44,174 bases of DNA from Patescibacteria group bacterium (lineage in GTDB: Bacteria; Patescibacteriota; Minisyncoccia; RBG-13-40-8-A), in contig JAHJST010000025.1 in assembly GCA_018829905.1 (NCBI GenBank), forward strand, positions 1 to 44,174. The letters are read 5' to 3'. Under the pieces are notes generated by a model. It saw nothing but the letters and a program-made list of their open reading frames with translations, did no database searches and was not told the DNA's origin. Shown here piece by piece: positions 25,568 through 44,174 of this stretch; positions within the stretch are counted from its first letter, which is position 1, and each line of letters starts with the position of its first letter. The translations under genes were made by a program, and so were the position numbers.

Positions 25568-25606
25568 ATATCATCATTATACCACAAATATATGACTATT
25601 TCAAAC

Positions 25607-25662
25607 CTATTTTTTTAGTTTATAAACCATATATAATGGATAAAACTCATAATAATGATCTT
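25607..25662 (-). pseudogene. 3' relic of the Zn-ribbon/PD-(D/E)XK gene
   Basis: 25613-25662 vs 26883-26932: 44/50 identical; DHYYEFYPLYMVYKLKK* vs DHYYEFYPLHMVYKLKP*. Confidence 0.85.
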
Positions 25663-25668
25663 AAATAT

Positions 25669-26001
25669 TTAAAATCCATTATTTTTAATATAGTCTTCTA
25701 TTTTTTTAATTGCCTTTTCAAAGTCTAAAAGTTCTGGTATTTGTTTTGAAAGACGAATTTTCCAATTCAATTTATATTCTTGTTTTTTAATTGCTGTCAA
25801 AAAATCAAGATCTTCTGAAAATCTATAATCAGGAAAATACATCTTTTTAAGCGCTGTTCCTCCTCTAAATATTAAATCTTTAATGTTTTTATGTTTAGAA
25901 AAATAAAAAAGAAACAATTCAATAAAATAATCTTTTTCAATTGTTTCTACTGGAACTCCTTTTTCTGATGCCTTTTTTACAATTTGAGAATAATTTATCA
26001 T
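25669..26001 (-). pseudogene. AbiEii toxin with a large in-frame internal deletion
   Basis: IEKDY, FRGGTAL, RFSEDLDF run directly into the C-terminal W...L..QI..L.DF segment; only 110 aa. Confidence 0.72.
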
Positions 26002-26810: not shown

Positions 26811-26827
26811 AAATCAATGTTTATTTA

Positions 26828-26880
26828 ATAGTATTAACGCCCATACCGTTAATACTATACAGAAAAAATACATTTGTCAA
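26828..26880 (-). promoter_or_regulatory. abiE promoter with 12-bp inverted-repeat operator
   Basis: TTGACA-17 nt-TAGTAT; ATAGTATTAACG-7 nt-CGTTAATACTAT; the TGA of the -35 is the upstream gene's stop. Confidence 0.78.
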
Positions 26881-27905: not shown

Positions 27906-27906
27906 A

Positions 27907-28911: not shown

Positions 28912-28923
28912 TATTTTTTAAAT

Positions 28924-29604
28924 TTAAAATTTAGTTTCTTTTACTTTGTCTATATAATAACAAAGGTCTTTACAGTCTTTTCTTGATTTTGGTGGTTGTG
29001 GCTGGTCTAAGATTTCTCTTGCTTTTAGAAGAATTTTTGGGATTTTTTCTAAATCTATTTTTATATCTACAATATATGTTTCAAATCCCAGTTTAAAATT
29101 TTCATCACTATCTAGATCATCATGAGGATGACAATAAATTAAAGATAAATTTCTTATTGGTTTAAATCCATATTTTTCAGCTAAAAATGCATAACAATTT
29201 AATTGTATTTCATATAAAGGAAATAGTTCGTCTTGTCTTTCTGTAAATTTTGCTGTTTTATAATCAATAATATGATATGCATTATCTTTTGTTTTTAAAA
29301 TATCATCTGGTTTTCCAATCAATATCCAATCACCATGCTCTACTGGAAGTTTAAATGTTGTATCATCTTCTACAACTTCTATTGCATCTGGAATTGGTAA
29401 CCATTCTGGTGGTTGGCCCTGATTATTAAAAGAACGATGAGTGCTTCTTTTTGAAACAGAGTCCAATGTACTAAATATTCCTGGAAATATTCCTGGTGCT
29501 TTTCCTATGTGTCTTTCATACCAAAAACATCTTGGACAAAAATCTGGCATGTTTAATTTTCCCAAGTCTTTTGCGCTTATTGATTTTAAATAGTTTTGTT
29601 TCAT
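28924..29604 (-). CDS. Solo RecB/Cas4-like PD-(D/E)XK nuclease
   Basis: CPRCFW, GKPDD, IIDYKT, QLNCYA, C-terminal C...C. Confidence 0.82.
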   Translation of the reverse strand: MKQNYLKSISAKDLGKLNMPDFCPRCFWYERHIGKAPGIFPGIFSTLDSVSKRSTHRSFNNQGQPPEWLPIPDAIEVVEDDTTFKLPVEHGDWILIGKPDDILKTKDNAYHIIDYKTAKFTERQDELFPLYEIQLNCYAFLAEKYGFKPIRNLSLIYCHPHDDLDSDENFKLGFETYIVDIKIDLEKIPKILLKAREILDQPQPPKSRKDCKDLCYYIDKVKETKF

Positions 29605-29668
29605 TTTTTTATAATTTTTCAAAATTATTAATACTGTCAAACTAAAAATTAAAATTTTTATAAATTTT

Positions 29669-29806
29669 CTATGTTCTACAAATTATACAATTAAAACAAT
29701 AATCACAACATTTCTTACCACAATTTTCAATAATCAATCTTTTGAAAAATTTTCTAAACTTTTTCAATTTTTCTAGTTCTTTTTGCATAAATTTGTTTTT
29801 TGTCAT
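29669..29806 (-). CDS. Small Cys-rich ORF (45 aa), possibly truncated
   Basis: MTKNKFMQKELEKLKKFRKFFKRLIIENCGKKCCDYCFNCIICRT*; below the ORF-track size cutoff. Confidence 0.45.
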   Translation of the reverse strand: MTKNKFMQKELEKLKKFRKFFKRLIIENCGKKCCDYCFNCIICRT

Positions 29807-30260
29807 TATAAACTAATTTTTTCTGAGGATTTTTCTTTTCAATTATTTTTTCTATTCTTTTAATAAAATCTTCAGCTGTTTTTATGGCATTTTTTGCTTC
29901 AATTTCAGAAATTATTAAATCTGTGCCATAAATTAAATAATTTCTTTTTTGTTTCATTCTTTTAAATTTTTCTATTAAAATCTTAAATTCTTTTCCTAAA
30001 TAAGATTCACAAAATCTTATTGTAATTATATGAGAACCAACGGTTCTTGGCTTGTATCCTAAAGAAAATATTAAAGCACGACCAGCTAAAATCATTGATT
30101 TGTATGCTTGCTCAAAAGCAGACTCATCAATGTTTTCCTTTAATAAAATTTTTGCTGCTTTGATTGACCTGCAAGACTTAATTAGCACGCTTTCTACTTC
30201 CTTAAGGCTGAATTTCTTTTTTTGTAAACTATTATCATCTAATAATTTTTTCAAATTCAT
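29754..30260 (-). CDS. HEPN-domain protein
   Basis: AYKSM..AGRAL, SH, KRNYLIY; homolog of 19025-19459, sharing PQKKL. Confidence 0.82.
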   Translation of the reverse strand: MNLKKLLDDNSLQKKKFSLKEVESVLIKSCRSIKAAKILLKENIDESAFEQAYKSMILAGRALIFSLGYKPRTVGSHIITIRFCESYLGKEFKILIEKFKRMKQKRNYLIYGTDLIISEIEAKNAIKTAEDFIKRIEKIIEKKNPQKKLVYNDKKQIYAKRTRKIEKV

Positions 30261-30819
30261 TTTGATTTCCAATAATAAATATTTTTGGATTACTTATTAT
30301 GTCTTCTAAAAAAACAGATTCTTTTGATTTTTTTCTAAAATCTTGTTGAGAAAATATAACATAATTTATTTCTCTGCTTAAATATGTTTCAATTAATGAA
30401 ATATTTTTAATTAAAATATTTTCATCTGGATTACCTATTATCATTAAATCAATGTCGCTAAATTGATCTTCTTTTTGTTTTGCAAAAGAACCAAAAATAA
30501 AAGATATTTTAATATTTTTTATTTTTTTTAAACCTTTTTCAATTCTTGCTTCTATTCCTATTGTTTTAGAAACTATTTTTTTTATTTCTTCAAAAAGTGG
30601 TGTTTTTTTATTTAAAAAATAGTAAAGCTGATTTCCTTTTTTCTCTTTTTTAAACAAACCAATTTTTTCCAAAGACAAAAGCTCTCTTCGAATATTTCCC
30701 ACTGAAATTTCTAGTTTTTTTTCTAATTCTCTTAAATAATATTTTTTATCAATATCTGTAAAAAATAATTTAAGGATTTTTTTTCTAGTTTTGGATTTTG
30801 AAATTCTTAAAATATCCAT
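30235..30819 (-). CDS. wHTH + MNT antitoxin
   Basis: YYLRELE...S.GNIRREL..LE..GL; GS-X10-DID; REINYV. Confidence 0.88.
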   Translation of the reverse strand: MDILRISKSKTRKKILKLFFTDIDKKYYLRELEKKLEISVGNIRRELLSLEKIGLFKKEKKGNQLYYFLNKKTPLFEEIKKIVSKTIGIEARIEKGLKKIKNIKISFIFGSFAKQKEDQFSDIDLMIIGNPDENILIKNISLIETYLSREINYVIFSQQDFRKKSKESVFLEDIISNPKIFIIGNQNEFEKIIR

Positions 30820-30823
30820 ATTT

Positions 30824-30874
30824 ATTGTAGTCAATACATACTTCAATTGTAGTCGATTTAAACTACGATGTCAA
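30824..30874 (-). promoter_or_regulatory. MNT-HEPN promoter with GACTACAAT direct repeats
   Basis: TTGACA-17 nt-TACAAT; ATTGTAGTC at 30824 and 30846. Confidence 0.72.
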
Positions 30875-30930
30875 GTTCTTATTTTATATATTTTTGTATG
30901 TTTTTATCTCGCGGGTTTGGATATGTTTTA
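30868..30930. repeat. About 60-bp degenerate direct repeat of 31606-31668
   Basis: atgtcaagtt.ttattt..tatatttttgtat.tttt.a.ctc.cgggtttgg.t.tgtttt present at both sites. Confidence 0.8.
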
Positions 30931-31156
30931 TATATTTAAATTATCTACTATATTTATATTTGTTAATTAATTAAAAAATTTACTATTAACTTTATCATAA
31001 TATCTTTATTAGTATGTTCCACATTGGAACATACTAATTTTTTATATAATTTTTTACTATCTAAAATATTGTTTATATATTTTGTAATCACTGATTTTTT
31101 AATTCTAAAATGATTTTACTATCTGTTTTAAATAATTTTGTTTCATTTTTTTATAA
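30931..31156 (-). pseudogene. Collapsed relic of the nuclease-rhuM-nuclease block
   Basis: 31126-31156 vs 29584-29614: 30/31 identical; IILELK fragment of rhuM; 30931-31007 resembles 27879-27951. Confidence 0.78.
31008..31038. repeat. Perfect 14-bp inverted repeat
   Basis: ATTAGTATGTTCCA-CAT-TGGAACATACTAAT. Confidence 0.8.
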
Positions 31157-31364
31157 AATCTTCTTTGGTTAGTTTTGATTGTCTTAAAATAGATTTAAAT
31201 GTTCCTACTGGTATTTCTTTTGAATGAATAGGGACAACAACTGTTAATGTTTCTTTTTTTGTAATTTTTCTATACTTAACATGACTTCCTTTTTGAGAAA
31301 TAAAAAGAAATCCTCGTTTTTCGAGAATTTTTATTATATAACGAGAAGTAAAAATTTTAGACAT
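31143..31364 (-). CDS. hicA: HicA family toxin
   Basis: IK.LE..GF...SQKGSHVKY, VVPIH.KEIP.GT..SILRQ. Confidence 0.92.
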   Translation of the reverse strand: MSKIFTSRYIIKILEKRGFLFISQKGSHVKYRKITKKETLTVVVPIHSKEIPVGTFKSILRQSKLTKEDFIKK

Positions 31365-31575
31365 ACTTTAATTGATGCGTAGTAATAGTCGGTTGTTCCA
31401 CCTTTATAATCTCTGATTTTGGAATATCTTCTAAATATAATTCTAAGGCTTCTTCTAAATTTTTTAAAGCCTTACTTCTAGTGTCTCCGAAACTAGAAAC
31501 ATCCACATTAAGACATTGAGCAACGTAATATTTACCTTCTTTCCATGTTATATATATAAATTTATTCTTTTTCAT
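31357..31575 (-). CDS. hicB: HicB family antitoxin (short, no DNA-binding domain)
   Basis: EG.YYVAQC....VSSFGDT...AL.NL.EALELYLE. Confidence 0.9.
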   Translation of the reverse strand: MKKNKFIYITWKEGKYYVAQCLNVDVSSFGDTRSKALKNLEEALELYLEDIPKSEIIKVEQPTITTHQLKYV

Positions 31576-31759
31576 ATATTTATATTTTATTATTTAAAAA
31601 ATTAAATGTCAAGTTTTTATTTCGTATATTTTTGTATTTTTTACCTCACGGGTTTGGGTGTGTTTTTTGAGTTTTTTGTTGTTTTTCGTGAGGTGGTTTT
31701 GTTTTTGTTTTTTGGTTGTTTTCGTGAGTTTTTAAGCTGATTTTGTGGTTTTTTGTTTT

Positions 31760-31810
31760 TTATTCAATAATTTCTTCTTGTTGTATGGTTTCTTCTGGTT
31801 GTGTGGTTGA
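31760..31810 (-). pseudogene. 3' relic of an allele of the giant fibre gene
   Basis: PEETIQQEEIIE* vs PEQTPQSEAVIK*: 6/12 identical, same distance to TAA, followed by an A-run in both. Confidence 0.62.
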
Positions 31811-31904
31811 CTATGGTCCTGATAATCCTTTAAACATTAAATTTTAACATAATTAAAAAACAAACAGTAAAATGTTTGTATTTTGAATAATAAATATATT
31901 AAAT

Positions 31905-32201
31905 TTATCTTGATTTAATTCCTAATTTAAATTCTAATTTCCTAACTCTTTTTTTTAAGTCATTTACATCAAATTGAAAGGCTGTATTACCTAGTCTTAA
32001 TTTAATGTCTTCATTGGCCTGTTCTATCCTTTCTAATCTGTTCTCTACCTTATCTAATCTGTCATCTACCTTATCAAATCTTTTATCTACTTTATCAAAT
32101 CTTTTATCCATATTATCAAAACCACCTTTAACCATTTCAGCTGTAGGAAATATTTCTTTTTGGGCTTTTATTAGTTTTTTGATATCTTTATCTGTAAGCA
32201 T
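31905..32201 (-). CDS. Small coiled-coil protein with heptad repeats
   Basis: FDNMDKR-FDKVDKR-FDKVDDR-LDKVENR-LERIE; 21-bp tandem DNA repeats at about 32033-32121; promoter TTGACA-16 nt-TAAAAT 6 nt before the ATG. Confidence 0.75.
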   Translation of the reverse strand: MLTDKDIKKLIKAQKEIFPTAEMVKGGFDNMDKRFDKVDKRFDKVDDRLDKVENRLERIEQANEDIKLRLGNTAFQFDVNDLKKRVRKLEFKLGIKSR

Positions 32202-32262
32202 AGTTTAATTTTATCAAATGTTTATTCTATGTCAAGTTTTTCATTTTTATCCATAAAAAAAC

Positions 32263-32357
32263 TTGACAAGGGGTTTTTTATAATATAGAATTATAATATC
32301 ACGATGAGAGGGCACGCCTAAGGTTTCGTCCGAAGGTTACTCCCTCTCTTTTGTTTT
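32263..32357 (+). ncRNA. Putative small RNA 1 (promoter plus about 60-nt hairpin) convergent with NYN1
   Basis: TTGACA-17 nt-TAGAAT; GAGAGGG(32306)...CCCTCTC(32348) followed by TTTTGTTTT. Confidence 0.55.
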
Positions 32358-32849
32358 GCCCAATTTATGGTTTAAATCATCTATATAAATAAAATATTTA
32401 CGAAACTTTCTTAATAATGCAGAATATTTTCTACGATTAGGAATTATTATACGGAAGAGTTTTCTTTGTTTTTCTAAATATTCTATTAAACAATGAAAAT
32501 CTCCATCACCAGAGACAATAATTGCTTTATCATAATTAGGATATTCAATCATTGTATGTAATACTAATTCTGCATCAACATTTCCTTTTATAAAATTTTC
32601 TTCTTTCTTTTTGTATTCAAGGGTTGGTTTGAAAATAACAATATAACCAGTTTTTTGTAAAAAAGTATACAATGCCTCATTGCCTGGAACATAACCAATA
32701 AAAAGAAAGCTCTTTGTAACCTTATACTTGTCTTTAATATAAATATAGAATTTAGCAAAATCTAATTCCCAGCCACGATCTTTAATTGCTAAATTAAGAT
32801 TCTGACTATCTACAAAAGCATAATTATTTTCTTTTATTTTTTGACTCAT
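32337..32849 (-). CDS. NYN (LabA/DUF88, PIN-like) domain nuclease
   Basis: AFVDSQNL, KGNVDAELV, VSGDGDF: intact acidic active-site set. Confidence 0.93.
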   Translation of the reverse strand: MSQKIKENNYAFVDSQNLNLAIKDRGWELDFAKFYIYIKDKYKVTKSFLFIGYVPGNEALYTFLQKTGYIVIFKPTLEYKKKEENFIKGNVDAELVLHTMIEYPNYDKAIIVSGDGDFHCLIEYLEKQRKLFRIIIPNRRKYSALLRKFRKYFIYIDDLNHKLGKTKERE

Positions 32850-32913
32850 ATTATATAGCTTATTTTGATAATAAGTTGTTTTTTTTATTCATAAAAAAAA
32901 CTGTAAAAAAAAC

Positions 32914-32994
32914 TTGACAAGAGGTTTTTTATAAATTATACTGAATAATGTGATAGCACTCTGGGGTGTCCTTTGGACAGCCCCAGATTTTTTT
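32914..32994 (+). ncRNA. Putative small RNA 2 (promoter plus about 45-nt hairpin) convergent with NYN2
   Basis: TTGACA-17 nt-TATACT; TCTGGGG-TGTCC-TTT-GGACA-G-CCCCAGA followed by T7. Confidence 0.55.
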
Positions 32995-33429
32995 ATTGAG
33001 AAATTTCGTTTTTTAATTTGTGTAGATCAATATATTTAGCTCTTTCTAATAATTCTTTAGAAATACGCCCTCTTGTGGACATAACAATAATCCATTTACT
33101 TTTCTTTTTAATTCTATTTCGAAAGCTAATTCCATATCAAGATTTCCTTTGAGCTTATCGCGATAACTAGATATTTTTATTTTTTTAATAGCTTTGGTTC
33201 TTAAAATATATCCATTAATGTCTAGCATATCTAAAAATTTCTGTTCATTTTGCTTGTTTTCGTCATAAGCAGCGTAAATAAAACATTTTACATCCTTGCC
33301 ACATTCTTTTTTAAAATATTTCATTAATTTTTCATAAGAAATCTTCCAACCCAAAGTCCTTTGAGCATAAAAAGTATTAGCTGCGTCTATAAAAACATAT
33401 ACTTTGCCTTTAATAAATTTCTTAATCAT
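32993..33429 (-). pseudogene. NYN domain gene with internal deletion and frameshift
   Basis: VFIDAAN and KGNLDMEL present, SGD.DF missing; C-terminus KWIIVMSTRGRISKELLERAKYIDLHKLKNEISQ* continues in another frame to 32993. Confidence 0.82.
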
Positions 33430-33460: not shown

Positions 33461-36400
33461 TTATTTAATAACTGCTTCTGATTGTGGTGTTTGTTCTGGT
33501 TCAATGACTGGTTTTTCAATTGGCTGTGGTTCTTCTATTGTTGGTTGTTCAACAACTGGCTTTAATAATTCATCAATTACGGGGATAGATTCCTCTGGAG
33601 CAATGTCGGCAGAACCATCTTTATCTGGGGTTGGTTCTTCAACAACTGGTTCTAGTACTGGGGTTGGGGTTGGTGTTGGTGTTGGTGTTGGTTCAATAAT
33701 TTCGGGTTCTAAAGGAGGGGTTTCTTCCTCTATTATACATGTGGAATCACAGCCGTCTCCGTCTATTTTATTGCCGTCATCACATGATTCTCCTGGTTGT
33801 ACAACACTATCTCCGCAAAAAGCTTCGACAACTCCGGCATTGTTATTATCGGATGCAATATCGGCATCTGATGCAATGTCGGCAGGAGAATCTTCCTCAT
33901 CTACTAATAAAATCCAGTAATCAAATTCTAGGGGTTCTGGGGTTACGTCGCTTAAGCGGATTGTAAATCCAGCTCCTTGTGCTTTTTCTGATATGTAGTA
34001 AGTTCTGCCTCCTGTGTCTGAGGTAAATGTAATGAATATTTTTGAATTTGTTTCAACTAGTTTATTCTTTACTCTGTATTCTATTTGTTGGGCTGGGAAT
34101 ATGTCTGAACCAACAATAGAATCTTTGTCTTTTTGTTTTTTAACTCTAAATTGTTCTACTGCTAGTTTAGTAATATTTGTTATTCCGTCTTTTATTGTTA
34201 TTCCTAGATTCTTTAAAGTGTTAATAATTTGGCTTACTATGTTTGTATCTAATGATGGAGGAAGAATAGAATGTTTAATTGTTATATTATCCTCTTTGCT
34301 TATTGATGTTCCATTCTCTTTTATTTTTATTAACTCTTTTTCATTTATACATGTTTTTCCTATACATAGTTTATTACCTATGTGTAAATCTTTGGATATT
34401 GATGCTGTGCCTGCGACTGTTAGTTTGTAGGTTGGGTTAGTTGTTCCTATGCCGACGTTATTTGAAGCGTTATCTACAAATAACGTACCACTATCTACAT
34501 TAAAATCACCTGCGACGGTAAGACCTCCTGCAAAGCTGGAACTTGCTGTTCCTGATACGGTTAAAACACCTGTTAATGCTGATGATGAGGCAAGAATTCC
34601 GCCTGCAACTTCTAACTTATATAGGGGTGAAACATTTCCGATGCCGACGTTGCCTGTGGAGTTGATTGTTATTGATTCAATATTTTGTGGTGCATTAATT
34701 ATATTCATTATTGAAAACATTTCGCTAAATGTTTGGGCCCATAGACCATGTAATTTTTCATATTCTATTGCTTTTTGATTATCAAATAATTCAGTAGTTT
34801 CTGTATGAACCGCTTCTGGTAGTATTGCTTCAACTTCCTGAGCAATCATACCTATCTGTGTTTCTTGGTTTTTATCTGGATCTGTCCAATTAAATGTTAC
34901 CCCTCTTAATTGAGATGCTTTTTCTAATGCACTTGTAACTGTTGTTATATTTGTTTTTAAACGTTCATCAGAAGATGAATGATATGCGCCAAAAACTCCA
35001 CCAACATATCCATCATCTTCAATCCAAAACACATCGCTTCCTGCGTGCTGAACATGCACAAAACTGTCCGCATCATTATTATCACTGTCCATATTTATGT
35101 ATAAATCATCTTTTGCATAATAATATCCATAAGTAGAATACCCTTGATAAGTAGTTGCAGTTATTGTTCCAGAAGCATTAAAAGCAGTTCTATCTATCGT
35201 TGCTTCTAAGAGCGCGTCTGCCAATGTTCCTATTGAAAAGAAGGATGTTGCACTGTCTCCTGTTAAGGCAGATCCTGCTTCAGCATCACCAGCAGCATAA
35301 TTACCAGTAGTATCTGTGCCCAAAGCAACTGAATTAGCAGCAATTGTTGTTGTAATTGCTGTTGTTCCTGAACCAGTAACATCTCCTGATAATGTAATTG
35401 TTTGATTTCCTGTAAGATATGAAGAATCATTGGTCCACATAGATATATTTCCTGTAGCTCCTGTTAATGCTCCTCCAGTAAGTATGGCTGTGCCATCTGT
35501 TAAGGTTCCTCCTCTAATTATGTCTGTAGCTGTTAATGAATCAGATATTGATGCACGTACAAAATCAAACTTAATACCTCCTGTAATATTACCTGATAAT
35601 TTAATATTACCTACAACATCTAATTTTTCTGCTGGCCCCGTCGTCCCGATGCCGACGTTGCCGCTCGTTCCATAAATCCCCATTCGCACCGTTCTTGCAC
35701 TACCATTCCAATTAGACAATTCTACATTCGTAACATTGGAGGAAGGATTAGAAAATCTCATTCCACCCCACGAAGAGGCAGGTGAACCTACACGAAAATC
35801 AGTTGCGGAGTGAGAAGTGTCATTTGAACCCATAGAAAATTTGAAAATAACATCATCATCAGTTGTCCCAGTACCCGCAACCTCAAGTTTTCCAGTCGGG
35901 TTCGTCGTCCCGATGCCGACGTTGCCTCTTTGTGTTCCGCCCCCAATAGTCATTGCGATACTTGAACCGCCCACATTTCCCGTAACAAAATTGATATTGC
36001 CGTAAGTGCCGCCACTGGCCGCATAATTATTTACGATATTCGTGTCGACATAATTACTGCCGAAACGAAATGGCCCCGCCCCGCCATTATTCTGCTCAAA
36101 CTCCGAAGTATATACCGCTGCTGTGGCTCGTATTATTCCGCTGCCACCTCCGTTGACTGGGACGGTTTGAAAGTTGCCCAGAACCAAATTCGTGCCCGTG
36201 GTTTCAGCCTTAAAGACGTTTAGCAAAGCCCCTGGACTCGTTGTCCCGATGCCGACGTTGCCTGATGTTGTTAATGTTCCCACTGTTAACCCAGCGTCGC
36301 CACTATCATCAGCCAGTCTAACCGCTAAAGTTGTTGCGCTCTTTTTTAATGCAGGAAAAGAAGAAGTCGTGCCACCAAATTTAAGCATTGAAAAATCAGT

Positions 36401-39400
36401 TTGTGCATCGTTATACAGCTGTATTACTCCATCAGTAGCACTATCTATTCTAAATCTATTACTTTTTTGCAATACTCCCCCAAAGGCCACGTCACTAGTA
36501 AAATAACCTGTTCCGACAACATATAAAGCTTTTGTCGGCCCTGTTGTCCCGATGCCTATATTTCCTTGAACATATAAATGAGATGAGATTGATGCTATTC
36601 CATCAAAACTAACACTTCCTGAGCTTACAATTGAACTTCTAAAGATGGCTGTTCCATTTACGTCTAATAAAGCAGCAGGAACGGTTGTCCCGATGCCGAC
36701 GTTGCCTTGAATTGCTAATCCGTCCGTTGGTCCTGCAGAAGCCGCATATCCTGAACCAATGACAGCATTTCCACTGACGGCTAACTTTGACCCAGGCGAA
36801 GCTGTCCCGATGCCGACGTTGTCGCTTATATATGCCGTCCCTAAAACATCAAGAGTGTTAGTTGGGTCGGTAGTGGCATTATCCGCTATAGTAATACCTG
36901 AAGCTCCGATAAGCATCTTTGTTTTTGAGGTTGAAACATTATATATAGCAAAACCACCATTAGCCGCTGCTGGTTTTCCTGCGACTAATTGCCAACTTTG
37001 ACCATTAGCCCCAGTATTAACTATCCCAATTCGTGAAGTTGATTGGTCTCCTGATGATACAGTTAATAATGACCCTGGCGCCGTCGTCCCGATGCCGACG
37101 TTGCCTCCTGATAATATAGTCATACGACTTGTTCCAGTAACAGTCGTATTATTGGCTGCTGTAAAAAATTGTATATTGGTAGCTGCATTCATTATAGAAG
37201 ACCCTCCACCAATTTGCACATAATTATCGCTTGTATCTGACACGGCATACATTAAACTAATTGGTTCTTCTGCGTTTGTATAATGATACATACCCAAACG
37301 ACCATATTTATCTGTGGTGTTTGTTCTTGTATTAGCTGCTGAATCAGCACCTAATACAATAGATAATCCACCATTTGCAACATCAAGTTTTCCAGTCGGA
37401 TTCGTCGTCCCGATGCCGACGTTGCCGCTTGGTTGTATTCTCATCCTTTCCACACCAGTATTTGAGGTAACTGGATTTGTAACAAATCGTATAGCACTTC
37501 CGCCATTACTACCATCTGTGTCCCCTATTACTGAAATATCTAATATACGAGTATAAGGTGCACCAGCAATTGTGTAAGAATCTAATGTGGTCTTAGCTGG
37601 ACTATTCCAAGTTTTAAGAGATACCCCTGTTCCAGAAATACCGAATGATAACTGACCAACTGGCGCCGTCGTCCCGATGCCGACGTTGCCTTGTATTGTA
37701 AATTGTCCTGATACGCTCGCTGTGCCATCAACGGCTAATTTAGCAGTCGGAAGGAGAGTCCCGATGCCGACGTTGCCGTTCATTACTGCTAACCCTGCTG
37801 TCCCTGGAGTAGCTGTTCCTATTCCAACATTTCCTCCACTTGTGATAGTCATTGCTAAAGAATTATTATTACCAAATTTCATATCAGTATTTTCAAAATT
37901 CCAAAATAAAGGTTGTTCTACTGAATTTAGTCCTATCCTAAGTCCATCTGAGGTAGTTTGCCCGGTCCCATCATTTGTAAAATATTGATAAGTAGTTGCC
38001 CCTGTTGCACCATTATGTAACCATAACGGAATTGCATTTACATTACTTGTTCCAACATCTACCTGAAGTTTAGATAATGAAGGATTAGTCGTCCCGATGC
38101 CGACGTTGCCTGATTTATCTATTGTCACTGCCGTAGTCAATGTCCCGCCAGTGTTAGCAGTTCGTAAGTAAAGTTTGCCACCCACATCCACGGAGGTATC
38201 CTGAAGTCCGCCAGCAATAGCCGCTGGTGTATAACGAGTAGTGCCGCTACTATAATGATTTTCAAAAACTAATTGTGACTGTATGTTAGTTGGAGCCCAC
38301 GCATTAGTAATACCAGAACTAATTACAGCAAGGGTATTAAACCCTGTATTGTCGTTTACATTTTTAAGAACATCAAATAATACTGTAGGACTAGTCGTCC
38401 CGATGCCGACGTTGCCGGCACTTGTTATTCTGACCTGTTCCGTTTGCGCCCCACCATTTGTGTTGGTGGTAAATGTTATCTTTGATGGAGGACGATTCCC
38501 TGATGTAGGTACCCCATCAACCGAAAGTAATATGCCCGCGGTAGCAAAAAAACCTGTGCCTCCATGTGCATTTCCTTGAAGTAGAAGGATTTGATCTCCA
38601 TCAGAAACAATAGAAGGAGAAGCATGTGTCCCACCCGATCTTACCCCATATATTACAGACCTTGCCCCTGCTCCAGATATAGCTAGACTACTTTCTACCG
38701 CATCTTTGGCTAAATGTAATTGATACCCCGGCCCCGTCGTCCCGATGCCGACGTTGCCGTTCATTACTGCCAGACCCGCTGTCCCTGGATTAGCAGTACC
38801 AATTCCAATATTTCCACTTCCAAATATTGTTATTGCATTGACAGGGGTTCCAGCCGTTTTTGTGCGGAAATACCAGTTACTAACGTCAGTGTTAAACGGG
38901 AAATCCACATATACTTGACCAGTTGTAGCGTTTACCCACGTATCTAGCCCGGAATCAGTACCACTTCTAAAGATTTTGAAATGCGGATTTCCACTCGATG
39001 GCTCTATGTGAAGATTAGCCGTCGGCCCCGTCGTCCCGATGCCGACGTTGCCTTGATTTTGTATATACAAGACCTCGCTGATACTGGCTGTGCCTGCTAC
39101 TTCCAATGTTGCCCCTATATCGGTTGTCCCGATGCCGACGTTGCCGCTACTTCTTTGAATCCTCATAGCCTCATAATATGAACCACCGTAATATCTATCT
39201 ATTGCTAAATCAGAATCTGGAGTGACAGAGTGTCTAAATCCCCAATAAGGACTAGTAGCATAATTAAACCTTAGAATTGGAGTTGTTCCTGGGGTATCTG
39301 ACCTATTAACGGTTGATAGGTTTAATAACGCTCCTGGGTCGCTGGTGCCTATACCTACCATTGAGTTTGATGCTACAACAAAGGTTGTGTCCATTATTCT

Positions 39401-42400
39401 GGTTTCTGCACTTATAGATGCTGTCCCATCAACGCTTAACTTATATCCAGGGCTGGTGTCTCCGATGCCGACGTTGCCTTGATTTGTTATTCTCATTTTC
39501 TCGGAAATATTAACTGCATCACGATATGTGGTGAAAAATGCTAATCCCGTAGTACCACCAAATGTATCATTTTCATCTACTGCGGTAATTTTTGCTCTAA
39601 CTCCAGCTACACCTGACGTCCAGGCACTAACATCATTTGAATAAAATTGTAATTGTCCTATTGTTTCTCCATCAGCCACAACAGTATTACTAGATTCAAG
39701 TCGTAAGATATTATTAGCGGAAGTACTTTTTATATTAAGAAGTGCCCCCGGCCCCGTCGTCCCGATGCCGACGTTGCCCGTTATATCATTCATATTTATA
39801 GTACCTACTCCAGAAATTATAGACAATGTATTGGCAGTATTTCCATAATTTATCTGCCCTTTTATTGTTCCTGCTGATTTAAATAAAATTCCCGGCACTC
39901 CACTTGTTGTTGTATCTAAAGTAATATATCCATAACCTGCGTCCCCTTTAAATTTTGCTACTCCAATACCGCTTACATGAGTTCCCAAAACATCTAATGT
40001 CGCCCCCGGCGTTGTCGTCCCGATGCCCACATAATTAGCACCCGCATCTACATAAAGGGTGCCGCTGTCTATGTTCATTCCTGATGCTACGGTTAGTTCG
40101 TCCCATAGGGTTAAAGCTCCTGAGATAGATGCTGTGCCATCAACGCTTAGTTTAGCAGTCGGAAGGATAGTCCCGATGCCGACGTTGCCGGTTCCTTTTA
40201 TAGTCATCACAACGTCACTGGTTGTCTTGTAAGCAGAATTGAAAAGCGAATGAAAATTAAAATTGGTCGAAGTACCATCAAACACCATTCCAATACCTCC
40301 GACGGGCGTACCATTTGCTCCAACTTCATTTCGCCATATAATACCCTTTGTCCCCGTTCCCAACCCGCCAATATTATGTAACGTAAGTATTTCTGCGTCA
40401 GTAGTAGTACCAATGTTAGTTTGGATGTGTAATTTCCCCTGAGGTCCCGTCGTCCCGATGCCGACGTTGCCGCCAGTGAAATAAGAATTACCGGACCCTG
40501 CCGATTGTACAGGTCCGGGTCTGAACTTTTCGTAGCCGGTTCCTGGATTATCTCTAACCGCTATCGCTCCGTCACTTTCAATAGCTAGTTGTGAAGCAAC
40601 CACTCCTCCCCAGTGAAAGCTGAGCCGCGGCGGTAGATAGGCACTTGTACCACCAAATTGGGCTTCACGTAATTGTATTGGAGCTGTAGCATAATTAGTA
40701 GCTACATTATCACTTTGAGCCAGGATAGAGCTGCCGAGTGCTTTTATATTACCATTTACATCCAACTTCGCCCCTGGAGACACAGTCCCGATGCCGACGT
40801 TGCCTTGATTTTGTATATACAAGACCTCGCTGATACTGGCTGTGCCTGCTACTTCCAATGTTGCCCCTATATCGGTTGTCCCGATGCCGACGTTGCCGTT
40901 CTGGTCCATCAACATACCAGTATTCAATGTGCCACCTGAATTATATGTTTGTAGCTGTAACTTACCTCCTTGTCCAACAACTGGATTAAAATAAGCCGAA
41001 ATTAATGCATGATTATAGTAACCATTAAAAGTAAGTGATTCTCCTTGGGTATAATCTTGTGCGCTTGGATTACTCAAAGTAACAAGATTTGCAATACCAA
41101 AAAAACCCTTATTGACTGTTAGAGGTGCCCCCGGCCCCGTTGTCCCGATGCCGACGTTGCCTGAGCTTACTATCACATTGTTTCTCGGGTTTAAAATTAT
41201 ATTATCAGTTCCAGCTTGGTGAAAATCTATAAGGAGACGACTTGTCCCATCCGAATCCTTAAAATTATATCCTGTATATGACCCTTGATTTCCTTGAAAT
41301 TCAAGTATTCCATTACTACTATTTCTACCTATTTTGTAGTAAATCCCACCACCCATACCTATTCTTAATTGATCGCTTGAAGTTGTTCCTACAATGTCCA
41401 GAGCACTTCCCGGTGCCGTCGTCCCGATGCCGACGTTGCCTTGTATTGTAAATTGTCCTGATACGCTGGCGGTGCCATCAACGCTTAGTTTAGCAGTCGG
41501 AAGGAGAGTCCCGATGCCGACGTTGCCAGTGCTTGCAATACTCATTAATTCGAGTCCAGTACCACTTAAAATAGATAATCTTTCAGAATCTTCGCCATCT
41601 TGATAATTAGACCTGATAGTAAATCTCTTGTCTGTCTCATTTCCTGAAGTAATATCAAAAGAAGCAGTAGCAGTAGAGGCAATACTTAATAAAGCAGTAG
41701 GCCCCGTCGTCCCGATGCCGACGTTGCCGAGTACATTGAAACCATATTCACCAGCACCAATATTCTCCAAAGTTAATGACGTATCTGTATACCCTGTATT
41801 TGTTAGTATTCTAAATTTCCTAGCTGCAGTAGCATCAATCAATAGTGGGTAAGTAGAATTTTGAGGGTCTTTGAGTGCCAATATATCATCACCATTAGAA
41901 GCAGCAGCCACTTCCAACTTCGCCCCTGGACTCGTTGTGCCGATGCCGACGTTGCCTTGTATTATAGTTTGTCCTGAGATACTTGCAGTGCCATCAACGC
42001 TTAGTTTAGCAGTCGGAAGGAGAGTCCCGATGCCGACGTTGCCGCTGTCTAAAAAGGTTACAAGTTCCGCTCCACCAGTGGTTGTTGTTCTATTATGACC
42101 AAAATGATAGCCGGCCCCCGTTTGATTGTTATCCGAATCAATATTAAAAAACATTTCATCCGCAGTATTGATAGTTGCATTGATAGATCCCGCCGTACCC
42201 AATGTCAAAACCGGAGAAAAATTAGCGGTACCTAAGAATGTTCCCTCACCGGCAACTACAAGTTTTGTCCCCGGACTCGTTGTCCCGATGCCGACGTTGC
42301 CGCTTCCTTCTAAATGCAACACCGGGCTTGAACTCCAAGTTCCTGCAGAAGTAAGTAAATAATAATCAAGTTTTCCAGAAGAAACACCAGCTGAATATTT

Positions 42401-44173
42401 TGTTCCCTGTAAATAAGCTGTGTTTAAACCATCAACATCAAAAAGTATAATCTTCTGTCCTGTGGTTGAATCTAATCTCATCGCTCCAACCGCAGAACCA
42501 CCTGTGTCTATATCTAATTTAGCCCCCGGTCCCGTCGTCCCGATGCCGACGTTGCCGGTTGATTGCTCAAGAACCATTACATTCTTTGCGTTTTGCTCGT
42601 CAAAAAAGTACAAATGCGTTGCATCATTCGCACGCTGTCCAATACTCCATCTCCATCCACTCGCACCTGTATTGAAATACAAATTAGCATCGCTTGTTGA
42701 GACAGAACGTGTAATTCCAATTCCACTTGAATTCTTCGCTACTTCAAGAGCCAACACTGGATTCGTCGTCCCGATGCCGACGTTGCCGCTTCCTAAAATT
42801 GTGACCAAATCCGTTGTGTAATTCTGAATTTTAAGAACAGTTTCAGTGGCGGCGAGTGCCATAATTGATGTTCCTGCTACATCCTTTTTTGCGCCTACAA
42901 TGCCAACTGCCTGCAATGTTGCTGTTGGAGAATTACTTCCAATTATTCCGAATAAATCCAATCCTTGAGCATTAGCGTCAGATGCTCCATATAATCTGTA
43001 TCCTCCAGCAGTTGAAGATATAATGGTATGGTAAGCAAAAGTAGTATCATTAGACGCACCGAACCATCCTGATAAGCCATTACTTACATCTGCGTCGGAG
43101 AGAATAAAATTTCCATCACGAACATCTAATTTTCCAGTCGGCGCCGTCGTCCCGATGCCGACGTTGCCTGTTTCTGTTATTCTAACCTTTTCACCATTAT
43201 CGGAACCATAAAAAGCAGACATACCATCATCTCTTACAATAAATCTTGTAGCCCCAGCAGAATTTGCTGCTTCAAGTGAATATGTAGCCGAGGTTGTTCC
43301 TGCACCTCTTATAGACAACCTACCATTTCCAACTCCCGCTGTTCCGACTCTAAGGTCACCGGTTATTATCCCAATACCTACAACATGAAGAGGTGAGCTT
43401 GGCACCGTCGTCCCGATGCCGACGTTGCCTTGACTATCTATTCTCATTTTCTCGGTTAAATTAGTAGCACTTCCTCCAAGGTTAGTATAGAAAACCATAT
43501 CCTGCCTATAATTAATACCTTGTCCAACAGATATAGTGCCTATTTTCCCAGCCTGCCAATTCTCCCCAGTATACCCTGCCATAAAACCAATCGCTGGACC
43601 GGAAACGACGTCCCCAGCAGCCGGTCCCGCTTGTAGATTTAATACCGTGTTTAAACCAGACGCTGTAGAACCTTTAATATGCAAATTATAGAGTGGCCCC
43701 GTCGTCCCGATGCCGACGTTGCCTTGATTTTGTATATACAAGACCTCGCTGATACTGGCTGTGCCTGCTACTTCCAATGTTGCCCCTATATCGGTTGTCC
43801 CGATGCCGACGTTGCCAGAAGTATTGATTGTCATAGCCAATACTCCATTAGCGCCTAATTGTAATTTGGAACCAATTCCACTAGATAAAATAGCTAAATC
43901 GGTAGACAACCCTCCACTAAATTCTTGATCAGCATTTGCAATTCTACCAATTATTGTCCCCCCGACAGACAATGCTATTTCCGCACGAGTTGCATGATTA
44001 ACGGTCAATAACTCGCCCGGTGCCGTCGTCCCGATGCCGACGTTGCCGCTTGTTTGTTCAATGACTACCTTTGGTGTAGCCGCACCTGCAAAAAACTCTG
44101 CACGACCGCTGTCTTTTAAAACAAACAAATTCAAAGTATTGGCTTCGTTATTAAACCTATATCCTGCCGCCGC
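33461..44173 (-). CDS. Giant GNVGIGT-repeat fibre/adhesin with peptidase S74 chaperone domain (5' partial, >3570 aa)
   Basis: Frame open to the window edge; about 40 GNVGIGT-like motifs; SDERLK..RGVTFNW..GMIAQEVE; Cys-rich repeat; Pro/Glu tail. Confidence 0.88.
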   Translation of the reverse strand, partial: AAAGYRFNNEANTLNLFVLKDSGRAEFFAGAATPKVVIEQTSGNVGIGTTAPGELLTVNHATRAEIALSVGGTIIGRIANADQEFSGGLSTDLAILSSGIGSKLQLGANGVLAMTINTSGNVGIGTTDIGATLEVAGTASISEVLYIQNQGNVGIGTTGPLYNLHIKGSTASGLNTVLNLQAGPAAGDVVSGPAIGFMAGYTGENWQAGKIGTISVGQGINYRQDMVFYTNLGGSATNLTEKMRIDSQGNVGIGTTVPSSPLHVVGIGIITGDLRVGTAGVGNGRLSIRGAGTTSATYSLEAANSAGATRFIVRDDGMSAFYGSDNGEKVRITETGNVGIGTTAPTGKLDVRDGNFILSDADVSNGLSGWFGASNDTTFAYHTIISSTAGGYRLYGASDANAQGLDLFGIIGSNSPTATLQAVGIVGAKKDVAGTSIMALAATETVLKIQNYTTDLVTILGSGNVGIGTTNPVLALEVAKNSSGIGITRSVSTSDANLYFNTGASGWRWSIGQRANDATHLYFFDEQNAKNVMVLEQSTGNVGIGTTGPGAKLDIDTGGSAVGAMRLDSTTGQKIILFDVDGLNTAYLQGTKYSAGVSSGKLDYYLLTSAGTWSSSPVLHLEGSGNVGIGTTSPGTKLVVAGEGTFLGTANFSPVLTLGTAGSINATINTADEMFFNIDSDNNQTGAGYHFGHNRTTTTGGAELVTFLDSGNVGIGTLLPTAKLSVDGTASISGQTIIQGNVGIGTTSPGAKLEVAAASNGDDILALKDPQNSTYPLLIDATAARKFRILTNTGYTDTSLTLENIGAGEYGFNVLGNVGIGTTGPTALLSIASTATASFDITSGNETDKRFTIRSNYQDGEDSERLSILSGTGLELMSIASTGNVGIGTLLPTAKLSVDGTASVSGQFTIQGNVGIGTTAPGSALDIVGTTSSDQLRIGMGGGIYYKIGRNSSNGILEFQGNQGSYTGYNFKDSDGTSRLLIDFHQAGTDNIILNPRNNVIVSSGNVGIGTTGPGAPLTVNKGFFGIANLVTLSNPSAQDYTQGESLTFNGYYNHALISAYFNPVVGQGGKLQLQTYNSGGTLNTGMLMDQNGNVGIGTTDIGATLEVAGTASISEVLYIQNQGNVGIGTVSPGAKLDVNGNIKALGSSILAQSDNVATNYATAPIQLREAQFGGTSAYLPPRLSFHWGGVVASQLAIESDGAIAVRDNPGTGYEKFRPGPVQSAGSGNSYFTGGNVGIGTTGPQGKLHIQTNIGTTTDAEILTLHNIGGLGTGTKGIIWRNEVGANGTPVGGIGMVFDGTSTNFNFHSLFNSAYKTTSDVVMTIKGTGNVGIGTILPTAKLSVDGTASISGALTLWDELTVASGMNIDSGTLYVDAGANYVGIGTTTPGATLDVLGTHVSGIGVAKFKGDAGYGYITLDTTTSGVPGILFKSAGTIKGQINYGNTANTLSIISGVGTINMNDITGNVGIGTTGPGALLNIKSTSANNILRLESSNTVVADGETIGQLQFYSNDVSAWTSGVAGVRAKITAVDENDTFGGTTGLAFFTTYRDAVNISEKMRITNQGNVGIGDTSPGYKLSVDGTASISAETRIMDTTFVVASNSMVGIGTSDPGALLNLSTVNRSDTPGTTPILRFNYATSPYWGFRHSVTPDSDLAIDRYYGGSYYEAMRIQRSSGNVGIGTTDIGATLEVAGTASISEVLYIQNQGNVGIGTTGPTANLHIEPSSGNPHFKIFRSGTDSGLDTWVNATTGQVYVDFPFNTDVSNWYFRTKTAGTPVNAITIFGSGNIGIGTANPGTAGLAVMNGNVGIGTTGPGYQLHLAKDAVESSLAISGAGARSVIYGVRSGGTHASPSIVSDGDQILLLQGNAHGGTGFFATAGILLSVDGVPTSGNRPPSKITFTTNTNGGAQTEQVRITSAGNVGIGTTSPTVLFDVLKNVNDNTGFNTLAVISSGITNAWAPTNIQSQLVFENHYSSGTTRYTPAAIAGGLQDTSVDVGGKLYLRTANTGGTLTTAVTIDKSGNVGIGTTNPSLSKLQVDVGTSNVNAIPLWLHNGATGATTYQYFTNDGTGQTTSDGLRIGLNSVEQPLFWNFENTDMKFGNNNSLAMTITSGGNVGIGTATPGTAGLAVMNGNVGIGTLLPTAKLAVDGTASVSGQFTIQGNVGIGTTAPVGQLSFGISGTGVSLKTWNSPAKTTLDSYTIAGAPYTRILDISVIGDTDGSNGGSAIRFVTNPVTSNTGVERMRIQPSGNVGIGTTNPTGKLDVANGGLSIVLGADSAANTRTNTTDKYGRLGMYHYTNAEEPISLMYAVSDTSDNYVQIGGGSSIMNAATNIQFFTAANNTTVTGTSRMTILSGGNVGIGTTAPGSLLTVSSGDQSTSRIGIVNTGANGQSWQLVAGKPAAANGGFAIYNVSTSKTKMLIGASGITIADNATTDPTNTLDVLGTAYISDNVGIGTASPGSKLAVSGNAVIGSGYAASAGPTDGLAIQGNVGIGTTVPAALLDVNGTAIFRSSIVSSGSVSFDGIASISSHLYVQGNIGIGTTGPTKALYVVGTGYFTSDVAFGGVLQKSNRFRIDSATDGVIQLYNDAQTDFSMLKFGGTTSSFPALKKSATTLAVRLADDSGDAGLTVGTLTTSGNVGIGTTSPGALLNVFKAETTGTNLVLGNFQTVPVNGGGSGIIRATAAVYTSEFEQNNGGAGPFRFGSNYVDTNIVNNYAASGGTYGNINFVTGNVGGSSIAMTIGGGTQRGNVGIGTTNPTGKLEVAGTGTTDDDVIFKFSMGSNDTSHSATDFRVGSPASSWGGMRFSNPSSNVTNVELSNWNGSARTVRMGIYGTSGNVGIGTTGPAEKLDVVGNIKLSGNITGGIKFDFVRASISDSLTATDIIRGGTLTDGTAILTGGALTGATGNISMWTNDSSYLTGNQTITLSGDVTGSGTTAITTTIAANSVALGTDTTGNYAAGDAEAGSALTGDSATSFFSIGTLADALLEATIDRTAFNASGTITATTYQGYSTYGYYYAKDDLYINMDSDNNDADSFVHVQHAGSDVFWIEDDGYVGGVFGAYHSSSDERLKTNITTVTSALEKASQLRGVTFNWTDPDKNQETQIGMIAQEVEAILPEAVHTETTELFDNQKAIEYEKLHGLWAQTFSEMFSIMNIINAPQNIESITINSTGNVGIGNVSPLYKLEVAGGILASSSALTGVLTVSGTASSSFAGGLTVAGDFNVDSGTLFVDNASNNVGIGTTNPTYKLTVAGTASISKDLHIGNKLCIGKTCINEKELIKIKENGTSISKEDNITIKHSILPPSLDTNIVSQIINTLKNLGITIKDGITNITKLAVEQFRVKKQKDKDSIVGSDIFPAQQIEYRVKNKLVETNSKIFITFTSDTGGRTYYISEKAQGAGFTIRLSDVTPEPLEFDYWILLVDEEDSPADIASDADIASDNNNAGVVEAFCGDSVVQPGESCDDGNKIDGDGCDSTCIIEEETPPLEPEIIEPTPTPTPTPTPVLEPVVEEPTPDKDGSADIAPEESIPVIDELLKPVVEQPTIEEPQPIEKPVIEPEQTPQSEAVIK
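35643..44047 (-). repeat. Dispersed in-frame 20-bp repeat GGCAACGTCGGCATCGGGAC
   Basis: 31 perfect copies counted by eye, plus about 7 variants extending to about 34443; all in the same codon phase. Confidence 0.95.
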
Positions 44174-44174
44174 A

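Follow-up and report, generated by a model that had tools for sequence, protein, structure and literature searches.

The window analysed in this work is a stretch of 44,174 bp that makes up one whole contig (C23) of the genome of a Patescibacteria group bacterium (641 kb in 27 contigs, 96% complete, 28% GC), and it contains on its minus strand a giant gene for a tail-fibre-like protein. The reading frame of this gene is open for 3,570 codons, from position 33461 to the end of the contig, so that its product is longer than 3,570 aa. The protein matches the PHROG tail fiber families phrog_9942 (4e-119) and phrog_18345 (1e-82), and its layout comprises about 40 cassettes, followed by an S74 domain and then by a Cys-rich and PT-rich tail, with a reading frame that runs unbroken in translation across all cassette junctions. 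The analysis centers on a DNA word repeated along the gene and on short modules that recur at dispersed positions within it.

33461..44173, minus strand: giant fibre gene, defined from the list of open reading frames (ORFs) and their translation; its 5′ end is open because the contig stops inside the gene.
35643..44047, minus strand: core array, 31 exact copies of the 20-nt word GGCAACGTCGGCATCGGGAC, coding for GNVGIGT.

Protein-level cores of the form xxVGIG number 42 across the fibre gene (34443-44047). Among them, 33 read GNVGIGT, and 31 of these 33 sites are letter-identical to the word, where the gene's own non-core codon usage leads one to expect a fraction of 6e-6. The period from core to core has a median of 237 nt within a range of 42-381 nt, and is in every case a multiple of 3. 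Searching the whole genome with at most one mismatch returned 33 matches, all within the fibre ORF and all in the same orientation (0 forward, 33 reverse), the word being absent from the other contigs of the genome. The core codons are rare in this genome (GTC, 3% of Val; ATC, 5% of Ile; ACG, 4% of Thr; AAC, 14% of Asn; GGG and GGC, 6% and 11% of Gly), and the fibre gene outside the cores approximately follows genomic codon usage (AAT, for instance, accounts for 83% of Asn). The GC content at third codon positions (GC3) falls from 1.0 in the core to 0.4-0.9 in the five codons that follow, and to approximately 0.1-0.3 from about 11 codons away. Conservation of the protein alone does not account for this spelling, because the equally conserved Leu at position +13 (29/31) is spelled by five codons and the Val at +15 by the usual GTT or GTA. 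Judged by its spelling, the core is a DNA-level feature.

Several simpler causes of the word were considered and set aside. GC-rich codon bias was rejected for the window gene, where these codons are genome-rare, and for most of the collection loci examined below, where the flanks are AT-rich. Translational accuracy or rare-codon pausing is also an unlikely cause, given that other conserved residues of the repeats use ordinary codons, that the three Gly codons of the word differ from one another and that the word is used in loci where its codons are not rare (L316, L317).

The initial annotation of the window had pointed to three modules, described as exactly duplicated at distant positions with identity ending within a few bases of flanking 20-mers, and had put forward the repeat-bounded cassette as the unit of movement. 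Breakpoints were mapped here through self-BLAST of 33461-44174 and subsequent alignments, in which module A was taken with 20-nt outer flanks. This self-comparison confirmed the coordinates of the following copies:

39033..39145, minus strand: module A copy 1, made of core, 73 nt and core, with interior TDIGATLEVAGTASISEVLYIQNQ; 100% identical to both other copies.
40785..40897, minus strand: module A copy 2, 100% identical.
43704..43816, minus strand: module A copy 3, 100% identical.
37671..37777, minus strand: module B copy 1 (B1), made of core, 67 nt and core, with interior LLPTAKLAVDGTASVSGQFTIQ; 5 differences from B2 and 12 from B3.
41421..41527, minus strand: module B copy 2 (B2), a mosaic with its 5′ part like B3/B4 and its 3′ part like B1.
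41937..42043, minus strand: module B copy 3 (B3), with one mismatch in its downstream core (GGC for GGG).
40118..40189, minus strand: module B half copy, sharing the core and the first ~53 nt before diverging into a 153-nt cassette.
37758..37834, minus strand: module C copy 1, made of an AT-spelled GNVGIGT core, ATPGTAGLAVMN and a canonical core; directly before B1.
38739..38815, minus strand: module C copy 2, made of an AT-spelled GNIGIGT core, ANPGTAGLAVMN and a canonical core.

Module A, with a 93-nt period, forms a 113-nt block that is 100% identical at its three sites in this single metagenome assembly, with different neighbours each time, as had been proposed. The pairwise matches are 39024-39145 with 43695-43816 (122 nt), 39033-39146 with 40785-40898 (114 nt) and 40785-40897 with 43704-43816 (113 nt), all at 100%, and there are no synonymous differences across the 73-nt interior of the three copies. 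The copies are identical from the first base of the upstream core onwards, their outer flanks being unrelated, and identity stops for copy 2 at the last base of the downstream core, running 9 nt further between copies 1 and 3. Both ends of module A thus lie in or at the cores, in agreement with the view that identity is bounded by the flanking 20-mers.

Exactness does not extend to the other two modules. Module B, with an 87-nt period, recurs at the three sites expected and partially near 40130, but its three full copies are 88-95% identical: 94.8% over 116 nt (37662-37777 and 41412-41527), 91.0% over 111 nt (41417-41527 and 41933-42043) and 88.4% over 112 nt (37667-37778 and 41933-42044). Its half copy (40118-40190) matches B3 (41972-42044) at 94.5% over 73 nt and stops inside a cassette, not at a 20-mer. 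The site patterns among the B copies are incompatible with one another, with sites 40-44 separating B1 from B2, B3 and B4 and sites 63-66 separating B1 and B2 from B3 and B4, which implies at least one exchange within the 67-nt B interior. Module C, the module containing PGTAGLAVMN that was said to recur near 37780 and 38760, is present there in two copies that differ at 9 positions in 77 nt (about 88-90% identity). Four of these differences fall in the AT-spelled core and none in the canonical core.

The C modules hold two AT-spelled GN(V/I)GIGT cores (37815-37834 and 38796-38815), which differ from each other at 4 of 20 nt, against 0 of 20 for the canonical cores that adjoin them. As far as these comparisons go, some process keeps canonical cores identical and does not act on cores too diverged to pair.

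Two further cores, at 36546-36565 and 40017-40036, are chimeric, with a 5′ half that is AT-spelled or codes for other residues (GNI.., NYV..) and a canonical 3′ half (GGCATCGGGAC). They could reflect exchange breakpoints within the core or partial decay.

Outside A, B and C, cassettes share only some 40-80 nt around their cores in self-BLAST, so that the identical blocks lie far beyond chance. The long cassettes are unique at the nucleotide level, being about 25-46% identical to each other as proteins, and the short GTAS(I/V)S cassettes are dispersed among them, as first described. Such modules might in principle be old paralogues that were never recently copied and have been kept alike by purifying selection on linker structure, and the GTAS(I/V)S short cassette is indeed a family-wide protein motif, found also after the S74 domain and in a fragment on contig C18 that is described below. 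Selection on the protein would nonetheless have to maintain three copies of 73 nt with zero synonymous differences, when a conserved Leu of the same repeats uses five codons, and the B and C copies do differ at synonymous sites. The nucleotide data examined here already contradict the old-paralogue reading, which we find barely credible.

The distribution of identity around the cores is strongly asymmetric. Among 465 pairs of exact cores, identity ends at the 5′ edge in 459, and it extends 10 nt or more in the 3′ direction in 46, through shared tracts with a tail of 30-50 nt and then through whole short cassettes. A letter-perfect repeated site with a very sharp 5′ edge, together with whole cassettes duplicated at distant sites, is what might be expected of programmed shuffling by a dedicated site-specific recombinase acting at the 20-nt word, as integrons and shufflons do, with whole cassettes excised and re-inserted. 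The extended word (core plus ACGACG, as at 43700-43729) can moreover form a hairpin from a 5-bp inverted repeat, CGTCG...CGACG, with a DNA fold of -6.2 kcal/mol (z = -3.7). The ACGACG arm, however, is present in only about 19-20 of the 31 core copies and missing in 11-12, which speaks against an integron attC-type structure. All sites are direct repeats in frame, which does not fit a shufflon, and the mosaic and half copies are unexpected from cut-and-paste at fixed sites. There is no site-specific recombinase beside the gene or in the 44-kb window, where the neighbours are toxin-antitoxin, NYN and housekeeping genes, and the only matches to tyrosine or serine recombinases in the genome (PF00589, PF00239) lie on contigs C14 and C16. 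Taken together, these observations make a dedicated recombinase quite unlikely.

The hairpin itself was not adopted as a functional site, its fold being weak and not kept in all copies. The sole tyrosine-recombinase match in the genome (C14:13548-15347) is in two parts within one 747-aa frame, which suggests, from the arrangement of the match, an insertion, possibly another intein, in an Xer-type gene.

To place these observations in a wider context we compared homologous genes from 12 relatives and 5 further records taken from collection matches, giving 21 loci with the window included. High-scoring segment pairs (HSPs) were retained if they lay off the diagonal and within core-bearing spans and measured no less than 85 nt at 85% identity or more. 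Seven of the 21 loci yielded 27 such HSPs; in 20 of them both copies begin at a core, in 20 both finish at one and in 17 both ends do so, where the chance of an HSP end falling at a core is 1.6-7.6% per end. These 17 are not independent observations, since they derive from six repeat families: window modules A and B, a module with a 168-nt period in L298 (200 nt duplicated at 98%), a 252-nt cassette in L310 (274 nt duplicated at 97%), a four-copy module with a 117-nt period also in L310, and a four-copy module with a 195-nt period in L315, a viral contig. One core-to-core module is common to two contigs of one genome (L303/L307), and modules are also shared within a genome by the contigs of the L310/L311 pair.

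None of the 27 HSPs joins adjacent copies, and neither do any of the six HSPs of the window, which bears out the earlier claim that the modules did not arise by tandem slippage. Unequal crossing-over or replication slippage between cores, generating tandem duplications that were later dispersed, has the appeal that in-frame direct repeats of 20-26 nt are classical substrates and that in-frame deletions and duplications between direct repeats are documented for Helicobacter cagY (PMC2194252). It would nevertheless have to explain module copies that never adjoin, with distances of 516 to 4,671 nt from start to start, 1.6 and 2.8 kb of sequence between the A copies that was not duplicated along with them, and youngest copies, those that are 100% identical, that are already far apart. 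We regard this explanation as very unlikely.

Equally improbable, in our estimation, is the repeated import of modules from outside, from a phage or another fibre gene, by way of the common word. The modules shared within the L303/L307 and L310/L311 pairs and the broad distribution of the exact word, detailed below, are compatible with such traffic. A BLAST comparison of the window gene with 301 other loci, on the other hand, found no nucleotide match to any cassette, the best being a core-centred match of 83 nt at 83% and the remainder covering some 60-83 nt around cores. The codon usage of the cassettes is that of the host genome, the word is on no other contig of that genome, and copying in cis is a more parsimonious source of three identical modules than import.

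The part of the initial proposal that concerned the unit of movement stands only partially. Module A is delimited from core to core, as are 17 of the 27 HSPs, but the cassette is not a fixed unit. The B mosaics, the half copy, the graded sharing of 10-50 nt on the 3′ side of core pairs and the ends that fall inside cassettes fit variable-length conversion tracts and not the excision and insertion of a defined element. With moderate confidence, we consider it the likelier account that the duplicated modules are products of homology-anchored, non-reciprocal recombination within one gene, through RecA-type gene conversion or replication template switching. The mechanism of this recombination, along with its rate and any benefit, is what we infer from the observed anatomy of the gene, its core breakpoints, mosaics and codon anomaly, the recurrence of the pattern and the presence of recA in the genome and of recO in the window.

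In the model that we propose, the starting point is that each cassette opens with the loop motif GNVGIGT, followed by TTxPxxKL, and that the motif is encoded in this gene by one exact GC-rich word of 20-26 nt. Because the word is identical at about 31 in-frame positions, pairing at any other copy is possible, and a broken or nascent strand would pair at any one of them, copy the sequence 3′ of that word and resolve either inside the cassette or at the next word. Resolution inside a cassette would leave extended core identity, the half copy and the B mosaics, and resolution at the next word would transfer short cassettes in full, as with A, B and C. Cassettes of 57-93 nt would be copied whole because a short tract already reaches the next anchor. 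Repeated exchanges would wipe mutations from the word, giving letter identity with rare codons in an AT-rich gene, and the two AT-spelled cores, unable to pair, would have drifted. The outcome would be in-frame reshuffling and lengthening of the fibre shaft.

Several observations weigh against this interpretation or temper it. Ongoing recombination is read from fixed differences only, in one assembly. Ten of the 27 HSPs are not bounded by cores at both ends, and most comparison loci were chosen for having many cores. The breakpoints could owe as much to selection for whole structural units as to the mechanism. Homogenisation alone, furthermore, leaves the spelling common to distant lineages unexplained; horizontal spread of the subfamily or selection on the DNA word may account for it.

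The assembly itself must also be considered. Seven groundwater runs contain part of the gene, an origin that, like the size of the genome, fits an ultra-small bacterium of CPR/Patescibacteria type. Four of these runs, from four studies (X1, X2, X4, X5), were compared over 34200-44174 as contigs built with k=31. The Logan contigs of the four runs end at every core, owing to the great abundance of the word in these communities, and the order of cassettes and the contexts of the A copies are those of the assembly, which tempers the recombination account. More than 500 joints in the k=31 contigs have sides shorter than 31 nt and were disregarded as graph tangles. In X1, summed k-mer depths of core-bearing bins reach up to 12,000, against some 20-40 for the cassette contigs of the organism, so that the core word must be common to very many genomes in these groundwater communities.

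Repeat mis-resolution or bubble-popping during assembly might have produced the identical blocks or the cassette order from a gene with one copy or with diverged copies. The contig does end inside the gene, the 113-122-nt identical blocks exceed many assembly k-mers, and the word is hugely abundant in the source community. The 73-nt A interior has 0 matches in metagenome contigs of the Joint Genome Institute (JGI). A consensus-collapsing assembler could, in addition, have turned near-identical A copies into exactly identical ones, which likewise tempers the case for recent copying. Collapse cannot, however, produce the diverged B and C copies (88-95%), which show the same core-to-core pattern, and the pattern is also present, with copies 92-98% identical, in independent assemblies of other organisms. 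The dispersed, core-bounded pattern is therefore independent of module A. The reading frame is also intact over all junctions, and several long cassettes, among the longest pieces, which are those listed, are recovered at 100% in runs of more than one study. The most that an artefact would explain is why the A copies match exactly, or how the segments between copies are ordered, and as an explanation of the whole it is unlikely.

The exact word is not confined to the window gene. Of the 60 nearest genomes, 29 hold a total of 134 GNVGIGT-coding sites, and the exact word is found at 45 of these, in 14 genomes (a tally of the matches listed, 17 rows not being among them). The species-genome collection has the word in more than 150 loci and the viral contigs in more than 130, both figures being lower bounds. 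Among the matches listed, the taxa include groups of the candidate phyla radiation (CPR), DPANN and methanogen archaea, Acidobacteriota, Planctomycetota, Elusimicrobiota and others. In these same matches the word is almost always coding, with 351 of 359 occurrences inside an open frame and spacings that are multiples of 3 in all of 116 cases, and the GC3 of the flanks has a median of 0.38, with 269 of 359 below 0.5 and only 15 at 0.7 or above. Since the word thus occurs mostly in an AT-rich codon context, GC-rich codon bias does not explain it here either.

A degenerate, unbiased scan of viral contigs found 225 GNVGIGT-coding sites in 159 spellings, of which 4 are exact and 26 within one mismatch. 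The universality of the exact word is rejected by these 4 sites in 225, although the letters used at viral sites are skewed towards the canonical ones (GGC 49%, AAC 56%, GTC 32%) despite a flank GC3 of 0.27, and the mean distance between spellings is smaller within loci (2.29) than between them (3.90). On these counts the word is typical of a subfamily, above all of large arrays, rather than of all such motifs.

A second spelling of GNVGIGT, with G-ending Gly and Val codons plus AAT and ATT, stands beside the canonical one in several unrelated genomes (G002:C13, G061:C18 and C37, G008:C22, G025:C3) and in viral loci, and there may be more than one frozen word. The viral record G062 (L223-L226, L315) is a 7-kb contig with a CheckV completeness of 6, nearly all of it taken up by one fibre gene with 22 cores; similarity to tail fibres may be the sole basis of its viral assignment.

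A bolder reading takes the GC-rich word for an actively maintained DNA joint, a common recombination standard for a fibre-gene subfamily that spans CPR bacteria, DPANN, other phyla and viruses. Its length would be close to the minimum for pairing, it would anneal stably in AT-rich DNA, and it would allow shaft and tip modules to be copied inside one gene, from paralogue to paralogue and from one genome to another. The canonical spelling does dominate multi-core arrays in distant lineages whatever their codon usage, as the 45 exact sites among 134 in the 60 relatives illustrate, and the flanks of 269 of 359 exact words in the collection loci have a GC3 below 0.5, but the exact spelling is rare in the unbiased viral scan and no cross-genome exchange of cassettes is seen for the window gene. 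We put this reading forward tentatively, as a possibility that we doubt. If it held, it may mean rapid in-frame remodelling of an attachment fibre at the population level in host-dependent, ultra-small cells.

The protein encoded by the gene bears several independently recognizable features, located as follows:

34805..34972, minus strand: Peptidase_S74 intramolecular chaperone domain (aa 3068-3123; Pfam PF13884, 9e-19, 68 bits against a cut-off of 22).
33725..33817, minus strand: cysteine-rich acidic repeat (myxo_disulf_rpt / DUF4215), within the ~450-aa extension that follows the S74 domain (NCBIfam TIGR02232, 1.2e-9); the Pfam DUF4215 match (4e-5) is under its cut-off.
40442..41161, minus strand: segment modelled as a homotrimer, composed of cassette 15, module A copy 2 and cassette 17 (complex prediction score 0.90).

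The S74 domain carries SDERLK, in agreement with the SDxxxK catalytic motif. The only solved structures that match the protein by sequence are Bdellovibrio MAT fibres, namely 8OND (1.4e-5), 8OML, 8OL4, 8ON4 and 8OJN (E values up to 1e-2), through alignments that cover the common motif ...MRI..GNVGIGT..P..KL.V.G. MAT fibres are described as intertwined trimeric beta-helix/prism shafts with mosaic tips and recurrent glycine-rich capping-loop motifs (Caulton et al. 2024, PMC10769870). The core and its flank, V-G-I-G-T-T-x-P-x-x-K-L, agree with the capping-loop consensus given in that source, V-G-G/N-pi-x-x-P-x-x-x-L, in the P-x-x-x-L part, with one extra residue between V and P.

Three copies of aa 1005-1244 are predicted to form one continuous homotrimer, with a score of 0.90 against 0.00 for the best of 3 controls. 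In a two-copy calibration, this mark was attained by 21 of the 30 proteins solved as pairs of one chain and by none of the 23 solved as single chains. Runs agree in at least 93% of contacts, with a predicted local distance difference test (pLDDT) value of at least 87 for the partner. The score may derive from the model's memory of, or likeness to, solved MAT fibres. A monomer AlphaFold2 prediction of one cassette, based on an alignment of 26 paralogous cassettes, was unusable (mean pLDDT 57.6; predicted template modelling score, pTM, 0.29). The fibre shaft is accordingly modelled, and only in this sense described, as an intertwined homotrimer in which the cassettes would be structural units. 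The S74 domain with its SDxxxK motif, the PHROG matches, the matches to MAT structures in the PDB and the homotrimer model place the protein, as judged from sequence and prediction, in the superfamily of S74-type trimeric tail-fibre-like and MAT fibres in a broad sense. Strict MAT membership is not implied, the N-terminus being off the contig or different.

In the window protein the S74 chaperone is not C-terminal, with about 450 residues beyond it (33461-34804). This extension comprises two more cores with a GTASIS module, a Lys-rich segment, the Cys-rich acidic repeat and a Pro/Thr/Glu-rich tail. If the domain self-cleaves as in phage fibres, a C-terminal piece of ~450 residues would come free.

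A candidate for the other end of the gene lies on contig C18 of the same genome (C18:1-2703, minus strand; locus L318), in the form of a 901-aa ORF whose 3′ end is open. It contains, in order, an N-terminal HTH_17 domain (aa 13-49, 34 bits), a second stretch resembling a helix-turn-helix (HTH), one hydrophobic helix and fibre-like repeats, one of which is nearly identical to aa ~2880-2915 of the window fibre protein. From these matches, the C18 ORF probably represents the 5′ part that the giant gene lacks on its own contig, the alternative being that it belongs to a second fibre gene.

The rest of the window is of a different nature. Housekeeping genes are found between 123 and 33429, among them those for Met-, Ile- and Arg-tRNA synthetases, a further class II tRNA synthetase, IF-3, SmpB and RecO. 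Directly downstream of the fibre gene, at 24594-33429, is a cluster of toxin-antitoxin and defence-type genes with AbiEii, RhuM/Fic, a PD-(D/E)XK nuclease, two HEPN/nucleotidyltransferase genes, HicA and two NYN-domain genes. An 844-aa ORF at 20722-23256 (minus strand) holds an internal intein splicing domain and a LAGLIDADG homing-endonuclease match, with no Pfam match to a host protein at 1e-5.

Ultra-small CPR bacteria rely on attachment to other cells, and giant proteins resembling tail fibres are prime candidates for that contact. In the gene analysed here, the rebuilding of such a fibre can be followed base by base, with one exact, codon-discordant word at every module boundary and modules copied from one word to another. 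Were the word to act as a recombination anchor, the length and composition of the fibre could change in frame without dedicated machinery, which would constitute a simple evolvability device. Short-read assemblies of such genes will come out broken or scrambled, so that the true diversity of these genes is probably underestimated, and the core word provides a handy probe for finding and typing them. In the literature we found no account of module junctions with a frozen, codon-discordant spelling, none of modules copied from core to core in such fibres, and nothing on GNVGIGT or on Peptidase_S74 in Patescibacteria.

Borrelia vlsE and Neisseria pilE/pilS are well-known systems in which short segments with short conserved borders are transferred non-reciprocally into an expressed surface-protein gene, from silent donor cassettes that lie outside the expression site. 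In the window gene, in contrast, donor and recipient are in the same ORF and the genome holds no silent copies: all 33 core matches are in the fibre ORF, and tblastn of the repeat region against the rest of the genome returned one weak match, on C18. On the features compared here, the gene falls outside silent-cassette antigenic variation, integron and shufflon systems, and tandem slippage alike.

As a protein, the closest likeness is to the Bdellovibrio MATs and to S74-bearing phage tail fibres and spikes: the window protein aligns with solved MAT structures over the common motif, carries an S74 chaperone and is modelled with a trimeric shaft like that described for MATs. It is, however, 3-4 times longer than the ~1,000-aa MATs, and the ~450 residues after S74 set it apart from them. 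A signal peptide and a conserved, beta-rich N-terminal domain of ~130 aa are common to all 21 MATs (PMC10769870), whereas the probable N-terminus here, on C18, consists of an HTH and one membrane helix. In the main-text passages of that source, supplements excluded, nucleotide-level identity of the motif and intragenic copying of modules are not mentioned.

Nearer parallels to the process come from two unrelated proteins. Conserved glycine-rich motifs also delimit the variable modules of the T-even adhesin gp38, and the breakpoints lie within them (Tetart et al. as cited in Trojet et al. 2011, PMC3157838). This ~260-aa adhesin has 5 motifs against ~40 in the window gene, its exchanges take place between phages whereas the copies described here are within one cellular gene, and the passages considered of PMC3157838 report no frozen synonymous spelling discordant with host codon usage. 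In Helicobacter pylori cagY, recombination proceeds in frame among intragenic direct repeats (Aras et al. 2003, PMC2194252), and it is most probably in the manner of this intragenic recombination that the window gene works. The products described for cagY, a different protein family, are deletions and duplications between repeats within host populations, in contrast with the dispersed copy-and-paste seen here in one assembly. On this comparison, the process appears to resemble most closely the motif recombination of T-even adhesins and the repeat recombination of cagY, and the evolvability device proposed above would, if real, be comparable to both, in a different family and on a much larger scale.

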